From the NCBI RefSeq assembly GCF_054482525.1, contig NZ_CM137006.1: a stretch of 64,000 bases of DNA; one strand, written 5' to 3'. The notes below the pieces were generated by a model, which saw nothing but the letters and a program-made list of their open reading frames with translations, did no database searches and was not told the DNA's origin. Both the position numbers and the translations under genes were made by a program. Numbering within the stretch: the first letter of the stretch is position 1; each line of letters opens with the position of its first letter. Shown piece after piece: positions 11,603 through 53,550 of this stretch.

Positions 11603-11700
11603 TAAAAAAAGCCGGCATCATGCCGGCCCAAAAAATATAAACAAGACGATAAAAGGCTAATAACGGAAGCATCATGACACAGAATAATAAAAAGGGATAA
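11603..11700 (-). ncRNA. rseX: Candidate small RNA upstream of yedS (position expected for RseX); 5' end not determined
   Basis: Minus-strand terminator (hairpin GCCGGCATGATGCCGGC plus T-run, plus 11604-11627) in the yedR-yedS intergenic region; RseX is known from this position in K-12. Confidence 0.3.
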
Positions 11701-17324: not shown

Positions 17325-19849
<2,525 letters not shown>

Positions 19850-20028: not shown

Positions 20029-20116
20029 AACACATCAGATTTCCTGGTGTAACGAATTTTTTAAGTGCTTCTTGCTTAAGCAAGTTTCATCCCGACCCCC
20101 TCAGGGTCGGGATTTT
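20029..20116 (+). ncRNA. dsrA: DsrA small regulatory RNA
   Basis: Sequence AACACATCAGATTTCCTGGTGTAACGAATTTTTTAAGTGCTTCTTGCTTAAGCAAGTTTCATCCCGACCCCCTCAGGGTCGGGATTT including its terminator hairpin and U-run. Confidence 0.9.
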
Positions 20117-25725: not shown

Positions 25726-25829
25726 GTGTTGCGGTCTTCCTGTGTCGCTACTGCTTATCGGCTAATTATCCTGCGTCTTGAGCGCAACAAAGCGGGGAAA
25801 AGACGCGGATTACGGTGCTACCTCTGACG

Positions 25830-40069: not shown

Positions 40070-41476
40070 TTACTTGGAATTACTGTTGTTTTCGAACTGC
40101 TGCGTTAAGTAGCTGCTGGTGCTATTTAACGAGGTCATTAAAACGTCCAGCTGGGTAAATTGTTCTTTGTAGCGAGCGACCTGCGCATCAATGCGATCGC
40201 TGGCGGCGTTATAGTCTTTAGTTAACTTATTCAGGGTCTTACTAACGCCATCGGTAGCGGCTTTAATAATGCCCGTTGTCGAAAGCCAACTGGTCAGGTT
40301 GCTGCCGATGGTGGTCGTGATGCCGGTTTTTTTACCATCGCCAACAATCAATGCACCTACGCCGCTGGCATCTTTTTTCAATGCAGCGGTGAGTTTGTCG
40401 GCATCCAGCTCCAGTTTGCCATCGCTGGGATCGGTCGTGATACCAATCTGCGCCAACGTTTTATAGTTGGAAGAACTAACGGTATTACTCAGCATCGACT
40501 TCAACTGCGTCTGAATCGTCCGCAACGTGGAGTCGCCGAGCAGTGCGCCATTGCTAGAACTCTGGCTATCAGCTCCCGCATCTACGGCGGTGTATTTGGT
40601 CAGGCTGCTGAAGGTATCTATTAGCGAGTTATAGGCATTCACCCAGTCTTTAATCGCCGTTTGCGCTTTGGAGGTGTCCTGAGTGATGGTTAGCGTCTGG
40701 TTGCCCGTGGTGACATCGTTCAGGTTCAGGGTGATGTTTTCCAGCGCGTCGCTGATGGTGTTGCTGCTGTTCTCAATGGCGACGTTGTTGACCGTCAGCT
40801 GCGCATTCTGGGCGGCGACCGAGACCTCCATGCCGTTGCTGCTGGCACTGGCGTCATAGCCCATAAAACTTTGTAGCGCATCATCACCGCTAACCGAGAG
40901 CGTCATCGCATTATCAAGGCCGGTGTCATTCGATGTGACTGACAGACGATATTCACCGTTACCCACGTTAATGATGCTTGCGCTTACACCTGCTTTTGCG
41001 TTGTTGATGGCATCACGGATCCCGCTTAACGACGAGTTAGCCGCGCTGATATCAATGGTGATCGGCTCTTTGTCGCCGCCTTGTTGAATGGTGAGTTTGC
41101 TGTCGCTGGTGGCGATCGCCGTTTTCGTATCGTCTCTGGTGGTGCGCGTGGTCAGGGTTTGCGCCTGCGCCAGATGGGTGACACTGATGGTGTATTTCCC
41201 GGCGATGGCGTTACCCGCAGTGGTGGCACTGAATGCGGTGGTGCTGCTGGTGGTGCTGGTGGCGGAAAAAAGATCGGCTTTAGACAATGCAGTATTGGCG
41301 GTCTGGAAAGTCGTCAGCGCGCTTTTCAGCGTACCGTAGGCGCTAAGTTTAGCGGTAAACGACGATTGCTGATTTGAAATGGGGGTTAGCGTCGCTTTTT
41401 GCGCGGCGGTGAGGCTATCAAGGATTGAACTTAAATCCAGACCTGACCCGACTCCCAGCGATGAAATACTTGCCAT
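40070..41476 (-). CDS. fliD: Flagellar filament cap protein FliD
   Basis: 468-aa ORF. Confidence 0.95.
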   Translation of the reverse strand: MASISSLGVGSGLDLSSILDSLTAAQKATLTPISNQQSSFTAKLSAYGTLKSALTTFQTANTALSKADLFSATSTTSSTTAFSATTAGNAIAGKYTISVTHLAQAQTLTTRTTRDDTKTAIATSDSKLTIQQGGDKEPITIDISAANSSLSGIRDAINNAKAGVSASIINVGNGEYRLSVTSNDTGLDNAMTLSVSGDDALQSFMGYDASASSNGMEVSVAAQNAQLTVNNVAIENSSNTISDALENITLNLNDVTTGNQTLTITQDTSKAQTAIKDWVNAYNSLIDTFSSLTKYTAVDAGADSQSSSNGALLGDSTLRTIQTQLKSMLSNTVSSSNYKTLAQIGITTDPSDGKLELDADKLTAALKKDASGVGALIVGDGKKTGITTTIGSNLTSWLSTTGIIKAATDGVSKTLNKLTKDYNAASDRIDAQVARYKEQFTQLDVLMTSLNSTSSYLTQQFENNSNSK

Positions 41477-41519
41477 GCGATTTCCTTTTATCTTTCGACA
41501 CGTAAAACGAATACCGGGG

Positions 41520-41546
41520 TTATCGGCCTGAATTGCGCAAAGTTTA
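41520..41546 (-). promoter_or_regulatory. Sigma-28 (FliA) promoter of fliDST
   Basis: Minus-strand TAAACTTT, 11-nt spacer, GCCGATAA. Confidence 0.7.
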
Positions 41547-41638
41547 CGTTTAATTGTTTTTTTTAATAGCGGGAATAAGGGGCAGAGAAAAGAGTATTTC
41601 GGCGACTAACAAAAAATGGCTGTTTGTGAAAAAAATTC

Positions 41639-41665
41639 TAAAGGTTGTTTTACGACAGACGATAA
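41639..41665 (+). promoter_or_regulatory. Sigma-28 (FliA) promoter of fliC
   Basis: TAAAGGTT, 11-nt spacer, GACGATAA, about 75 bp upstream of the fliC ATG. Confidence 0.65.
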
Positions 41666-41741
41666 CAGGGTTGACGGCGATTGAGCCGACGGGTGGAAAC
41701 CCAATACGTAATCAACGACTTGCAATATAGGATAACGAATC

Positions 41742-43430
41742 ATGGCACAAGTCATTAATACCAACAGCCTCTCGCTGATCACTCAAAATAATATCAACAA
41801 GAACCAGTCTGCGCTGTCGAGTTCTATCGAGCGTCTGTCTTCTGGCTTGCGTATTAACAGCGCGAAGGATGACGCCGCAGGTCAGGCGATTGCTAACCGT
41901 TTTACTTCTAACATTAAAGGCCTGACTCAGGCTGCACGTAACGCCAACGACGGTATTTCTGTTGCACAGACCACTGAAGGCGCGCTGTCCGAAATCAACA
42001 ACAACTTACAGCGTGTGCGTGAACTGACCGTTCAGGCAACCACCGGTACCAACTCCCAGTCTGACCTGGACTCTATCCAGGACGAAATTAAATCCCGTCT
42101 GGACGAAATTGATCGCGTATCCGGTCAGACCCAGTTCAACGGCGTGAACGTGCTGGCAAAAGACGGTTCCATGAAAATTCAGGTTGGCGCGAACGATGGC
42201 CAGACCATCACTATCGACCTGAAGAAGATTGACTCTTCTACCTTGAACCTGACAGGTTTTAACGTTAACGGTTCTGGTTCTGTGGCGAATACTGCAGCAA
42301 CTAAAGCTGATTTAACCGCTGCTCAACTCTCTGCACCGGGTGCAGCAGACGCAAATGGTACAGTTACTTATACTGTCAGTGCTGGTTATAAAGAATCCAC
42401 TGCTGCAGATGTTATTGCTAGCATCAAAGACGGCAGTGCTCCGACTTCTGCAATTACTGCAACCATTAATAATGGCTTCGGTGATTCCAGTGCGCTGACT
42501 TCCAATGACTATACTTATGACCCAGCAAAAGGCGACTTCACTTACGACGTAGCTTCAAGCGCCAATAATACTGCTGCCCAGGTTCAGTCCTTCCTGACGC
42601 CGAAAGCAGGTGATACCGCAAATCTGAAAGTAACCGTTGGTACGACATCGGTTGATGTCGTTCTGGCCAGTGATGGTAAGATTACAGCAAAAGATGGTTC
42701 TGCATTATATATCGACAGTACAGGTAACCTGACTCAGAACAGTGCTGGCTTGACCTCTGCTAAACTGGCTACTCTGACTGGCCTTCAGGGCTCTGGTGTT
42801 GCTTCAACCATCACTACTGAAGATGGCACTAATATTGATATTGCTGCTAACGGTAATATTGGTCTGACCGGTGTTCGTATCAGTGCTGATTCTCTGCAGT
42901 CAGCGACTAAATCTACGGGCTTTACTGTTGGTACTGGCGCTACAGGTCTGACCGTAGGTACTGATGGTAAAGTGACTATCGGCGGGACTACTGCTCAGTC
43001 CTACACCAGCAAAGATGGTTCCCTGACTACTGATAACACCACTAAACTGTATCTGCAGAAAGATGGCTCTGTAACCAACGGTTCAGGTAAAGCGGTCTAT
43101 GTAGAAGCGGATGGTGATTTCACTACCGACGCTGCAACCAAAGCCGCAACCACCACCGATCCGCTGAAAGCCCTGGATGAGGCAATCAGCCAGATCGATA
43201 AGTTCCGTTCATCCCTGGGTGCTATCCAGAACCGTCTGGATTCCGCGGTCACCAACCTGAACAACACCACTACCAACCTGTCTGAAGCGCAGTCCCGTAT
43301 TCAGGACGCCGACTATGCGACCGAAGTGTCCAACATGTCGAAAGCGCAGATCATTCAGCAGGCCGGTAACTCCGTGCTGGCAAAAGCCAACCAGGTACCG
43401 CAACAGGTTCTGTCTCTGCTGCAGGGCTAA
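41742..43430 (+). CDS. fliC: Flagellin FliC, long allele (562 aa) with a non-K-12 central domain
   Basis: Conserved N-terminus (MAQVINTNSLSLITQNN...) and C-terminus (...QVPQQVLSLLQG) flanking a long Thr/Ser/Gly/Ala-rich middle region. Confidence 0.95.
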   Translation: MAQVINTNSLSLITQNNINKNQSALSSSIERLSSGLRINSAKDDAAGQAIANRFTSNIKGLTQAARNANDGISVAQTTEGALSEINNNLQRVRELTVQATTGTNSQSDLDSIQDEIKSRLDEIDRVSGQTQFNGVNVLAKDGSMKIQVGANDGQTITIDLKKIDSSTLNLTGFNVNGSGSVANTAATKADLTAAQLSAPGAADANGTVTYTVSAGYKESTAADVIASIKDGSAPTSAITATINNGFGDSSALTSNDYTYDPAKGDFTYDVASSANNTAAQVQSFLTPKAGDTANLKVTVGTTSVDVVLASDGKITAKDGSALYIDSTGNLTQNSAGLTSAKLATLTGLQGSGVASTITTEDGTNIDIAANGNIGLTGVRISADSLQSATKSTGFTVGTGATGLTVGTDGKVTIGGTTAQSYTSKDGSLTTDNTTKLYLQKDGSVTNGSGKAVYVEADGDFTTDAATKAATTTDPLKALDEAISQIDKFRSSLGAIQNRLDSAVTNLNNTTTNLSEAQSRIQDADYATEVSNMSKAQIIQQAGNSVLAKANQVPQQVLSLLQG

Positions 43431-43628: not shown

Positions 43629-43749
43629 TGTCCGCAATTTACCGGTAACCCCCAAATAACCCCTCATTTCACCCACTAATCGTCCGATTAAAAACCCTGC
43701 AGAAACGGATAATCATGCCGATAACTCATATAACGCAGGGCTGTTTATC

Positions 43750-44469
43750 GTGAATTCACTCTATACCGCTGAAGGTGTAATGGATAAACACTCGCTGTGG
43801 CAGCGTTATGTCCCGCTGGTGCGTCACGAAGCATTGCGCCTGCAGGTTCGACTGCCCGCGAGCGTGGAACTTGACGATCTGCTACAGGCGGGCGGCATTG
43901 GGTTACTTAATGCCGTCGAACGCTATGACGCCCTACAAGGAACGGCATTTACAACTTACGCAGTGCAGCGTATCCGTGGCGCTATGCTGGATGAACTTCG
44001 CAGCCGTGACTGGGTGCCGCGCAGCGTGCGACGCAACGCGCGTGAAGTGGCACAGGCAATAGGGCAACTGGAGCAGGAACTTGGCCGCAACGCCACGGAA
44101 ACTGAGGTAGCGGAACGTTTAGGGATCGATATTGCCGACTATCGCCAAATGTTGCTCGACACCAATAACAGCCAGCTCTTCTCCTACGATGAGTGGCGCG
44201 AAGAGCACGGCGATAGCATCGAACTGGTTACTGATGATCATCAGCGAGAAAACCCGCTACAACAACTGCTGGACAGTAATCTGCGCCAGCGGGTGATGGA
44301 AGCCATCGAAACGTTGCCGGAGCGCGAAAAACTGGTATTAACCCTCTATTACCAGGAAGAGCTGAATCTCAAAGAGATTGGCGCGGTGCTGGAGGTCGGG
44401 GAATCGCGGGTCAGTCAGTTACACAGCCAGGCCATTAAACGGTTACGCACTAAACTGGGTAAGTTATAA
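43750..44469 (+). CDS. fliA: Flagellar sigma factor sigma-28 (FliA)
   Basis: 239-aa ORF with GTG start. Confidence 0.95.
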   Translation: MNSLYTAEGVMDKHSLWQRYVPLVRHEALRLQVRLPASVELDDLLQAGGIGLLNAVERYDALQGTAFTTYAVQRIRGAMLDELRSRDWVPRSVRRNAREVAQAIGQLEQELGRNATETEVAERLGIDIADYRQMLLDTNNSQLFSYDEWREEHGDSIELVTDDHQRENPLQQLLDSNLRQRVMEAIETLPEREKLVLTLYYQEELNLKEIGAVLEVGESRVSQLHSQAIKRLRTKLGKL

Positions 44470-44514: not shown

Positions 44515-45066
44515 ATGATGGTGCAGCACCTGAAAAGACGGCCATTAAGCCGCTATCTTAAAGACTTTAAACACAGCCAGACCCATTGCGCGCATTGCCG
44601 TAAATTACTCGACCGCATTACCCTCGTTCGCGACGGCAAAATAGTGAATAAAATCGAGATTTCCCGCCTGGACATGCTGCTTGATGAAAATGGCTGGCAA
44701 ACGGAACAAAAATCATGGGCGGCATTGTGCCGATTTTGCGGTGATTTACATTGCAAAACGCAGAGTGATTTTTTCGATATTATCGGCTTTAAGCAATTTC
44801 TTTTTGAGCAAACTGAAATGAGCCCAGGTACGGTGCGTGAATATGTCGTTCGTCTGCGCCGTTTGGGGAATCATCTACACGAGCAAAATATTTCCCTCGA
44901 TCAGCTGCAGGGTGGTTTCCTTGATGAAATCCTCGCCCCGTGGCTGCCCACCACCAGCACCAACAATTACCGCATCGCATTACGGAAGTATCAACACTAT
45001 CAGCGTCAAACGTGTACCGGACTTGTGCAGAAATCCTCCAGCCTGCCTGCTTCTGATATATATTAA
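44515..45066 (+). CDS. fliZ: Regulator FliZ
   Basis: 183-aa product from ATG 44515 (MMVQHLKRRPL...). Confidence 0.92.
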   Translation: MMVQHLKRRPLSRYLKDFKHSQTHCAHCRKLLDRITLVRDGKIVNKIEISRLDMLLDENGWQTEQKSWAALCRFCGDLHCKTQSDFFDIIGFKQFLFEQTEMSPGTVREYVVRLRRLGNHLHEQNISLDQLQGGFLDEILAPWLPTTSTNNYRIALRKYQHYQRQTCTGLVQKSSSLPASDIY

Positions 45067-53420: not shown

Positions 53421-53496
<76 letters not shown>

Positions 53497-53550
53497 GTTT
53501 AAAAGACATCGGCGTCAAGCGGATGTCTGGCTGAAAGGCCTGAAGAATTT

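Follow-up and report, generated by a model that had tools for sequence, protein, structure and literature searches.

What drives transcription out of the 265 bp that separate fliD and fliC, and does each of the two genes have a sigma-28 promoter of its own there? In the flagellar cascade, class 2 transcription supplies FliA, and FlgM holds FliA until the hook-basal body is complete. A preliminary description, made from the letters of the DNA, had placed a pair of divergent sigma-28 promoters, for fliD and fliC, at 41477-41741 of the window, that is the whole 64,000-nucleotide stretch analysed here (contig NZ_CM137006.1 of assembly GCF_054482525.1). This reading was borne out: it is nearly certain that the spacer holds two non-overlapping, outward-facing sigma-28 (FliA) class 3 promoters, one for fliC and one for fliDST. 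The pair is already known and ordinary, being the same element as the K-12 fliC and fliDST FliA promoters.

The window covers the fli region of E. coli, running in the opposite direction to that of K-12, and 41477-41741 is exactly the fliD-fliC intergenic region. A 421-bp probe covering the spacer matched, at 100% identity, many E. coli chromosomes of RefSeq that have fliD and flagellin annotated there, and gene order agreed across 40 kb around the spacer in the RefSeq comparison. Relative to K-12 MG1655, 263 of the 265 positions are identical, the two SNPs being at 41527 and 41626. Three genes of the region matter for what follows.

40070..41476, minus strand: fliD (filament cap), first gene of fliDST; ORF of 468 aa, NCBIfam FliD equivalog at 685 bits (cut-off 387), and annotated as such by RefSeq in identical DNA.
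41742..43430, plus strand: fliC flagellin, 562 aa, with an H15-type variable region; NCBIfam match above the curated cut-off, RefSeq annotation of identical DNA.
43750..44469, plus strand: fliA, the cognate sigma-28 factor; NCBIfam FliA at 363 bits against a cut-off of 201.

The sigma factor is thereby encoded 2 kb from the spacer. The variable middle of fliC (42250-42950) was 100% identical to that of O7:H15 and O166:H15 strains, a type of middle present in 50 of 5,426 complete E. coli genomes, and by this identity the flagellin of the window strain is classed as H15-type. The experimental evidence cited below comes from K-12 or from other species, the H15 strain of the window being known here by its sequence.

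Small ORFs of the spacer (20-58 aa) were judged mechanical, because the region is promoter and leader and carries indels between alleles. No Rfam family matched inside the spacer, nor was there any Rfam match 3' of fliC in the window, where the sRNA FliX is annotated in K-12; the gathering-level matches were DsrA, RseX and three tRNAs (20029-20115, 11604-11693 and 53421-53720). Further away, between fliE and yedK, lies an intact 379-aa ORF (32992-34131, plus strand), the similarity of which to the leucine-rich repeats of SspH2/SlrP-type effectors is weak and far under the family cut-offs; the strain that best matches the spacer has emrE-ybcLM and an IS200/IS605 element in its place.

The two promoters consist of the following parts, the invariant columns being those of an alignment of 27 enterobacterial sequences.

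41539..41546, minus strand: fliD sigma-28 -35 element TAAACTTT, found by motif scan; 8 of 8 columns invariant, present in 57 of 61 divergent-fliD loci.
41528..41538, minus strand: fliD promoter spacer GCGCAATTCAG, 11 nt; conserved in length and not in sequence (0 of 11 columns invariant, 4 of 11 bases identical to the ST131-type allele).
41520..41527, minus strand: fliD sigma-28 -10 element GCCGATAA, without mismatch; nearly invariant in the 27 spacers, exact in 46 of 61 divergent-fliD loci.
41639..41646, plus strand: fliC sigma-28 -35 element TAAAGGTT, found by motif scan; 8 of 8 columns invariant, same as the K-12 ChIP motif.
41647..41657, plus strand: fliC promoter spacer GTTTTACGACA, 11 nt; 0 of 11 columns invariant, 4 of 11 bases identical to the ST131-type allele.
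41658..41665, plus strand: fliC sigma-28 -10 element GACGATAA, with one mismatch; 8 of 8 columns invariant.

Both spacers are 11 nt long, as had been stated beforehand. Against the pattern TAAA-N15-GCCGATAA, the fliD motif agrees at 12 of 12 positions and the fliC motif at 11 of 12. Compared with the full consensus TAAAGTTT-n11-GCCGATAA (Hollands 2010, PMC2859248), the scores are 15/16 for fliD (7/8 in the -35, 8/8 in the -10) and 14/16 for fliC (7/8 in each half), and both -10 elements retain an intact CGA core. Each motif lies on the strand of its gene, the -10 being separated from the ATG by 43 nt for fliD and by 76 nt for fliC. With 92 bp between their -35 elements, the promoters are divergent and do not overlap.

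How far these motifs stand out was measured by scanning both strands of the window for TAAA-N15-GCCGATAA, with shuffled controls. Allowing up to two mismatches, 14 matches were found, against 6.0 +/- 2.4 in the shuffles. With at most one mismatch there were four (fliD, fliC, fliL and one antisense in fliZ), where about 0.28 are expected analytically per 128 kb of strand, and the first three of them are published FliA sites; a match with zero mismatches is expected 0.008 times per window. For a PWM we then took the published FliA ChIP motifs (Fitzgerald et al.), minus the four sites that lie in this region, and scored the window with it. The fliD site obtained the top score of the window, 21.9 bits, the null maximum never exceeding 18.6, whereas the fliC site came tenth with 12.8 bits, a value inside the null range, where maxima average 14.5. 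Judged by sequence alone, then, the window has one outstanding site, that of fliD, and the fliC score lies within chance. The earlier claim of a close match to the consensus on both sides is accordingly sound for fliD (12/12, top PWM score) and, taken strictly, too generous for fliC (11/12, 12.8 bits). The case for the fliC promoter rests on position, orientation, conservation and published experiments.

Two other sigma-28 motifs of the window, those of fliAZY (TGCAGAAACGGATAATCATGCCGATAAC, 43698-43725, plus strand) and of fliLMNOPQR (TCAAGACGCAGGATAATTAGCCGATAAG, 25754-25781, minus strand), are the same as the K-12 FliA ChIP motifs. Three further matches, at 44779-44806 (minus strand, antisense in fliZ), 35904-35931 (plus strand, in a yedE-like ORF) and 19616-19643 (minus strand, in a 271-aa ORF), score 12-17 bits and are absent from the K-12 FliA ChIP-seq list; they probably represent chance matches or weak sites inside genes.

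In K-12, both promoters are documented FliA promoters, with ChIP-seq peaks over the two motifs. The peak for fliC covers TAAAGGTTGTTTTACGACAGACGATAAC (FAT 110, among the strongest of the table) and that for fliDST covers TAAACTTTGCGCAATTCAGACCGATAAC (FAT 43; Fitzgerald 2014, PMC4183435, Table 2). The fliC motif string of the window is exactly the K-12 ChIP string, and the fliD string differs by one base. After conversion of coordinates (window position = 2043372 minus NC_000913.2 position), the ChIP motif centres fall at about 41651 for fliC and 41531 for fliDST, and the peak centres at 41680 and 41516, that is about 28 nt and 15 nt downstream, toward each gene. A downstream offset of the peak was described by the authors for holoenzyme-bound FliA (Fitzgerald 2014, PMC4183435), and the offsets seen here are as expected of an outward-facing holoenzyme.

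Expression data add to this. Deletion of fliA in K-12 lowered fliC from 2319 to 11, and fliD from 633 to 356, a change that was not significant (Fitzgerald 2014, PMC4183435); in another study the deletion decreased fliC 78.8-fold and fliD 9.9-fold (Zhao 2007). Deletion of flhD or flhC in K-12 lowered fliD from 633 to 3, the K-12 fliDST promoter was positive in FlhDC ChIP-qPCR, and overexpression of fliA restored fliD in an flhD deletion (PMC4183435). Dependence on fliA in the K-12 literature is thus clear for fliC and partial for fliD. The comparison of wild type with a fliA mutant that the preliminary description had proposed is, for K-12, essentially published already.

At aer, transcription has been mapped to start on the 6th base past the -10 octamer (Hollands 2010, PMC2859248). 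By analogy, the two starts of the spacer would be placed as follows, to be compared with a reported 5' end.

41512..41515, minus strand: predicted start of sigma-28 transcription for fliD, 5-8 nt beyond the -10 octamer; 5'UTR of about 36-39 nt.
41671..41674, plus strand: predicted fliC transcription start, from aer geometry; 5'UTR of about 68-71 nt.
41555, minus strand: minor 5' end reported for fliD, lying upstream of the sigma-28 -35 (Kim et al. 2012, converted coordinate).

The last of these, the one fliD 5' end that was retrieved, is a low-count TSS in the supplement of Kim et al. 2012 (2001817 in NC_000913.2, 79-nt leader). It is preceded by TATTAA, and fits neither the sigma-28 promoter nor the class 2 start predicted near 41534 (see below). 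The same dataset has no sigma-28 start for fliC, and its fliC end lies inside fliD, which is implausible; we suspect that the cells used were poorly motile. Our literature search, which covered published TSS tables in part, retrieved no sigma-28 start resolved to the single nucleotide for either fliC or fliD: neither Melamed 2023 nor the ProQ paper has a start for fliC, and Cho 2014 gives expression values only, with no start site. For Enterobacter fliC, an RNA-seq start was reported to agree with the promoter elements (Wiegand et al.).

Conservation was followed within E. coli and then across genera. Three very divergent versions of the spacer exist in E. coli. In about 3,190 genomes the spacer is at least 95% identical to that of the window, in about 1,315, including ST131, it is about 70% identical, and in about 880 the match is limited to the 5' end of fliC. 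Two members of this last class were examined (O111:H8 and strain GD33), and both have fliC annotated at a distance of 254 bp from a divergently oriented fliD. In O111:H8, the single spacer read of the class, the promoter string and spacer sequence of fliC are those of Salmonella and Citrobacter, an identity that suggests exchange of a fliDC segment between genera; this Salmonella-like version keeps TAAACTTT-N11-GCCGATAA for fliD and has TAAAGTTC-N11-GCCGATAC for fliC. Between the window and the ST131-type allele, 175 of 265 positions are identical overall (66%); the motif bases agree at 32 of 32 and the bases of the 11-nt spacers at 8 of 22.

The fliD -10 itself differs between the window strain, which has GCCGATAA, and K-12 MG1655 together with an H48 strain, which have ACCGATAA (41527, C versus T). 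The G form is that of O157:H7, of the ST131-type and H8-type alleles and of 46 of the 61 loci of other species, and among the E. coli sequences compared ACCGATAA was found at fliD only in K-12-type (H48) records. The form carried by the window is, in the sequences compared, the widespread one.

Two other differences between E. coli alleles were observed. A 19-bp segment, ACAAAAAATGGCTGTTTGT (41609-41627), located between the candidate FlhDC block described below and the A-tract of fliC, is present in the window/K-12 allele and in most other genera, and missing from the ST131-type allele and from Pseudocitrobacter. In E. coli 23CRST049, the spacer's fliD side has given way to an element of the IS66 family: fliC no longer has fliD, the fliD promoter or the left portion of the spacer beside it, and its own sigma-28 promoter and leader are intact.

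Across species, one genome per species was scanned for the first 20 nt of fliC, a criterion blind to the promoter, which gave 74 loci. Spacer lengths of 10-12 nt were allowed in the motif search, and the best-scoring motif had an 11-nt spacer at every locus examined. In 59 of 76 evaluable flagellin upstream regions, a motif with at least 7/8 matches in each octamer and an 11-nt spacer was present 59-94 nt (mostly 69-80) before the ATG. The seemingly imperfect form TAAAGGTT-N11-GACGATAA was shared by 35 loci from many genera, and on these comparisons the fliC variant TAAAGGTT/GACGATAA reads as a conserved form rather than a decayed consensus. On the other side, wherever the TAAACTTT -35 was found at divergent fliD genes (57/61), it was followed by an 11-nt spacer, with the -10 at 35-53 nt before the fliD ATG. 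The fliD promoter is kept even where FliD identity falls to 35-55%, in Salmonella, Citrobacter, Proteus, Edwardsiella, Serratia and Yersinia.

In the alignment of 27 enterobacterial sequences, 30 of the 32 motif columns are invariant, versus none of the 22 spacer columns. Two conserved blocks around a spacer of fixed length and free sequence are the footprint expected of a two-block promoter, and conservation of the octamers while the spacers diverge supports function. The motifs had also been proposed as an internal check on gene orientation and choice of start codon, and they are consistent with both, the -10 to ATG distances of 43 and 76 nt being conserved across genera.

Some loci from this survey deserve a separate mention. 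In Proteus and a related MAG (L017, L024, L028, L040, L072 and L073), the flagellin copy beside fliD has TAAAGGTT-N11-GCCGATAA; in a second class of Proteus flagellin copies, which in L017 and L073 follow in tandem downstream, no more than a degraded motif is present, such as TAAATCCC-N11-GACGATAG. Two MAG contigs labelled 'Collinsella sp.' carry enterobacterial fliD-fliC loci, one (L058) with a FliD 100% identical to that of the window and the same promoter strings, the other (L059) with an H8-type fliD spacer; both contigs are probably misbinned or contaminant. The 20-mer was also matched in a Staphylococcus lugdunensis contig and in a Devosia MAG contig.

Conservation extends somewhat beyond the octamers on the fliC side, where the flanking bases are likewise invariant (41637-41647 and 41658-41666, 27 sequences). 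Two neighbouring elements are listed here.

41628..41638, plus strand: conserved A-tract GAAAAAAATTC, abutting the fliC -35 upstream; mean majority frequency 0.92 (27 sequences).
41675..41702, plus strand: conserved pair of short hairpins at the fliC leader's 5' end, CGGC/GCCG (41675-41688) and GGGU/ACCC (41691-41702); RNAalifold, 17 distinct leaders.

The A-tract is a possible UP element. Of the eight pairs formed by the hairpins in the 17 leaders, seven never vary and one shows UA/UG/CG variation, which is weak support for the structure; the hairpins may act as a stabilising 5' stem-loop.

We conclude that fliDST is dual-controlled and is not a pure class 3 operon: it also receives FlhDC-dependent class 2 transcription. 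An FlhD4C2 box is made of two inverted arms of about 17 bp, 10-11 bp apart, upstream of a weak sigma-70 promoter. A candidate for this box lies between the two promoters.

41563..41609, no strand assigned: conserved imperfect palindrome (inverted repeat I3), candidate FlhD4C2 box of the fliDST class 2 promoter, with conserved blocks TTAATAG and GAGTATTTC.

Its layout is TTAATAG...GAATAAGG-N11-GAGTATTTC...CTAAC, with 17 bp between GAATA and TATTT, as in the FlhDC consensus, and its AAATA...TATTT spacing agrees as well. Agreement with this consensus is 18/26, which is below the random maxima of 19-21 and no better than chance. Scanning with it gave matches upstream of fliA and yecR, the latter a published FlhDC target, with no discrimination from random sequence. 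A scan of 41300-41900 for sigma-70 promoters and terminators found no promoter-like site and no terminator.

It is conceivable, if rather doubtful, that the fliD sigma-28 -35 octamer doubles as a -10 hexamer, TAAACT (41546-41541), for the class 2 promoter that sigma-70 reads under activation by FlhDC. On this reading a class 2 start is predicted near 41534, and the centre of the palindrome, at about 41586, would be some 52 bp upstream of it, a layout that matches the geometry measured at fliA in the window (box 43647-43689, reported start 43720). If true, the same 8 bp would serve two holoenzymes one after the other, and this could explain the near-invariance of TAAACTTT and its fixed distance to the palindromic block across genera.

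The account that we favour is the following. As is well established, completion of the hook-basal body leads to export of the anti-sigma factor FlgM and thereby to release of FliA. Bound to TAAAGGTT-N11-GACGATAA, E-sigma28 would transcribe fliC rightward from about 41671-41674, and bound to TAAACTTT-N11-GCCGATAA it would transcribe fliDST leftward from about 41512-41515, both starts being predicted. Transcription of fliC would depend almost wholly on its sigma-28 promoter. The same spacer would hold an FlhDC-dependent sigma-70 class 2 promoter, from which fliDST is transcribed earlier too, and the sigma-28 promoter of fliDST would thereby be an auxiliary one, for late expression or repair. The preliminary description had counted starts located elsewhere than downstream of the motifs as evidence against it; because fliDST is dual-controlled, fliD transcripts that start upstream of the motif would be no refutation of the sigma-28 promoter.

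How much of the fliDST mRNA comes from each promoter can be read in different ways. The chances are about even that, under ordinary growth, it comes mostly from the FlhDC-activated class 2 promoter, sigma-28 serving only for filament repair or swarming. The modest and non-significant drop of fliD without fliA (633 to 356), set beside its collapse to 3 without flhD or flhC, speaks for this, as do the positive FlhDC ChIP-qPCR, the conserved palindromic block at 41563-41609, and a Salmonella literature summary that gives fliD promoters of class 2 as well as class 3 and a role in repair. However, fliD was down 9.9-fold in the fliA deletion of Zhao 2007, overexpressed fliA restores fliD when flhD is deleted, and a sigma-28 motif of perfect consensus, almost invariant across genera, argues for strong selection. 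Dominance of class 2 transcription at fliDST would in any case refine the dual-promoter account and not replace it.

Two other explanations would deny sigma-28 its part. That the octamers are kept for another factor, such as a repressor, a nucleoid protein or phage RNA-guided TldR, appears very improbable. Prophage-encoded TldR guide RNAs do target the FliA -10 region of fliC in Enterobacter, with GTTAT as TAM beside the target (Wiegand et al.); GTTAT is the reverse complement of ATAAC, found at 41662-41666 in the window, and the adjoining target sequence occupies 41643-41661. An off-target TldR ChIP peak was reported in the E. coli fliC-fliD spacer (Wiegand et al.), and the invariance of the bases flanking the fliC octamers also speaks for it. 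But TldR exploits the promoter and gives no account of conservation in hosts free of the prophage, two blocks with a fixed 11-nt spacer of free sequence are a sigma-28 signature, and FliA ChIP and fliA-dependence are direct. Still less credible, to the point of being negligible, is that both motifs are functionless chance matches to a short consensus. It is true that the best random match in 64 kb can reach the PWM score of the fliC site, and that several window sites of similar score are missing from the FliA ChIP list. Chance, however, would have had to put a zero-mismatch site (expectation 0.008 per window) and a second site with at most one mismatch in one 265-bp spacer, each facing its gene, and to keep them completely conserved while the spacers diverged, at places where K-12 ChIP-seq finds FliA. 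We rejected the chance explanation on the conservation pattern and on the published ChIP and expression data.

Sigma-28 promoters on both sides thus remain the preferred reading. They bear out how fliD and fliC are oriented and which start codons the two genes use, and have little import beyond annotation. The H15 strain retains the standard late-flagellar control circuit, and the promoter pair, with its 11-nt spacers and distances to the ATG, is held in three divergent E. coli alleles and in many enterobacterial genera.

Among known systems, the closest are the K-12 fliC and fliDST FliA promoters (Fitzgerald 2014), which share locus, spacing and ATG distances, with an identical fliC string. 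K-12 differs by its fliD -10 (ACCGATAA versus GCCGATAA in the window), by the second SNP, at 41626, and by its H48 fliC, where the window has H15. The Salmonella/Citrobacter type shares the divergent layout, the fliD promoter TAAACTTT-N11-GCCGATAA, the 11-nt spacers and outward transcription. However, its fliC promoter is TAAAGTTC-N11-GCCGATAC instead of TAAAGGTT-N11-GACGATAA, its -10 to ATG distances are shorter (69 versus 76 nt for fliC, 38 versus 43 for fliD), and its inter-promoter sequence is unrelated to that of the window.

The E. coli aer promoter (Hollands 2010, PMC2859248) likewise consists of two octamers and an 11-nt spacer, but its elements, TAAAGATA and GCCGACAT, are weaker and it needs CRP at -49.5, whereas the window data on fliC and fliD show no activation of the CRP type. 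Finally, at the overlapping class 2/class 3 promoters of fliAZY (43698-43725) and fliLMNOPQR (25754-25781), which the window contains and the FliA ChIP list includes, the sigma-28 motif adjoins an FlhDC-dependent sigma-70 promoter, as proposed for fliDST. Their -35 halves are poor (TGCAGAAA and TCAAGACG), in contrast with the near-perfect -35 of fliD.
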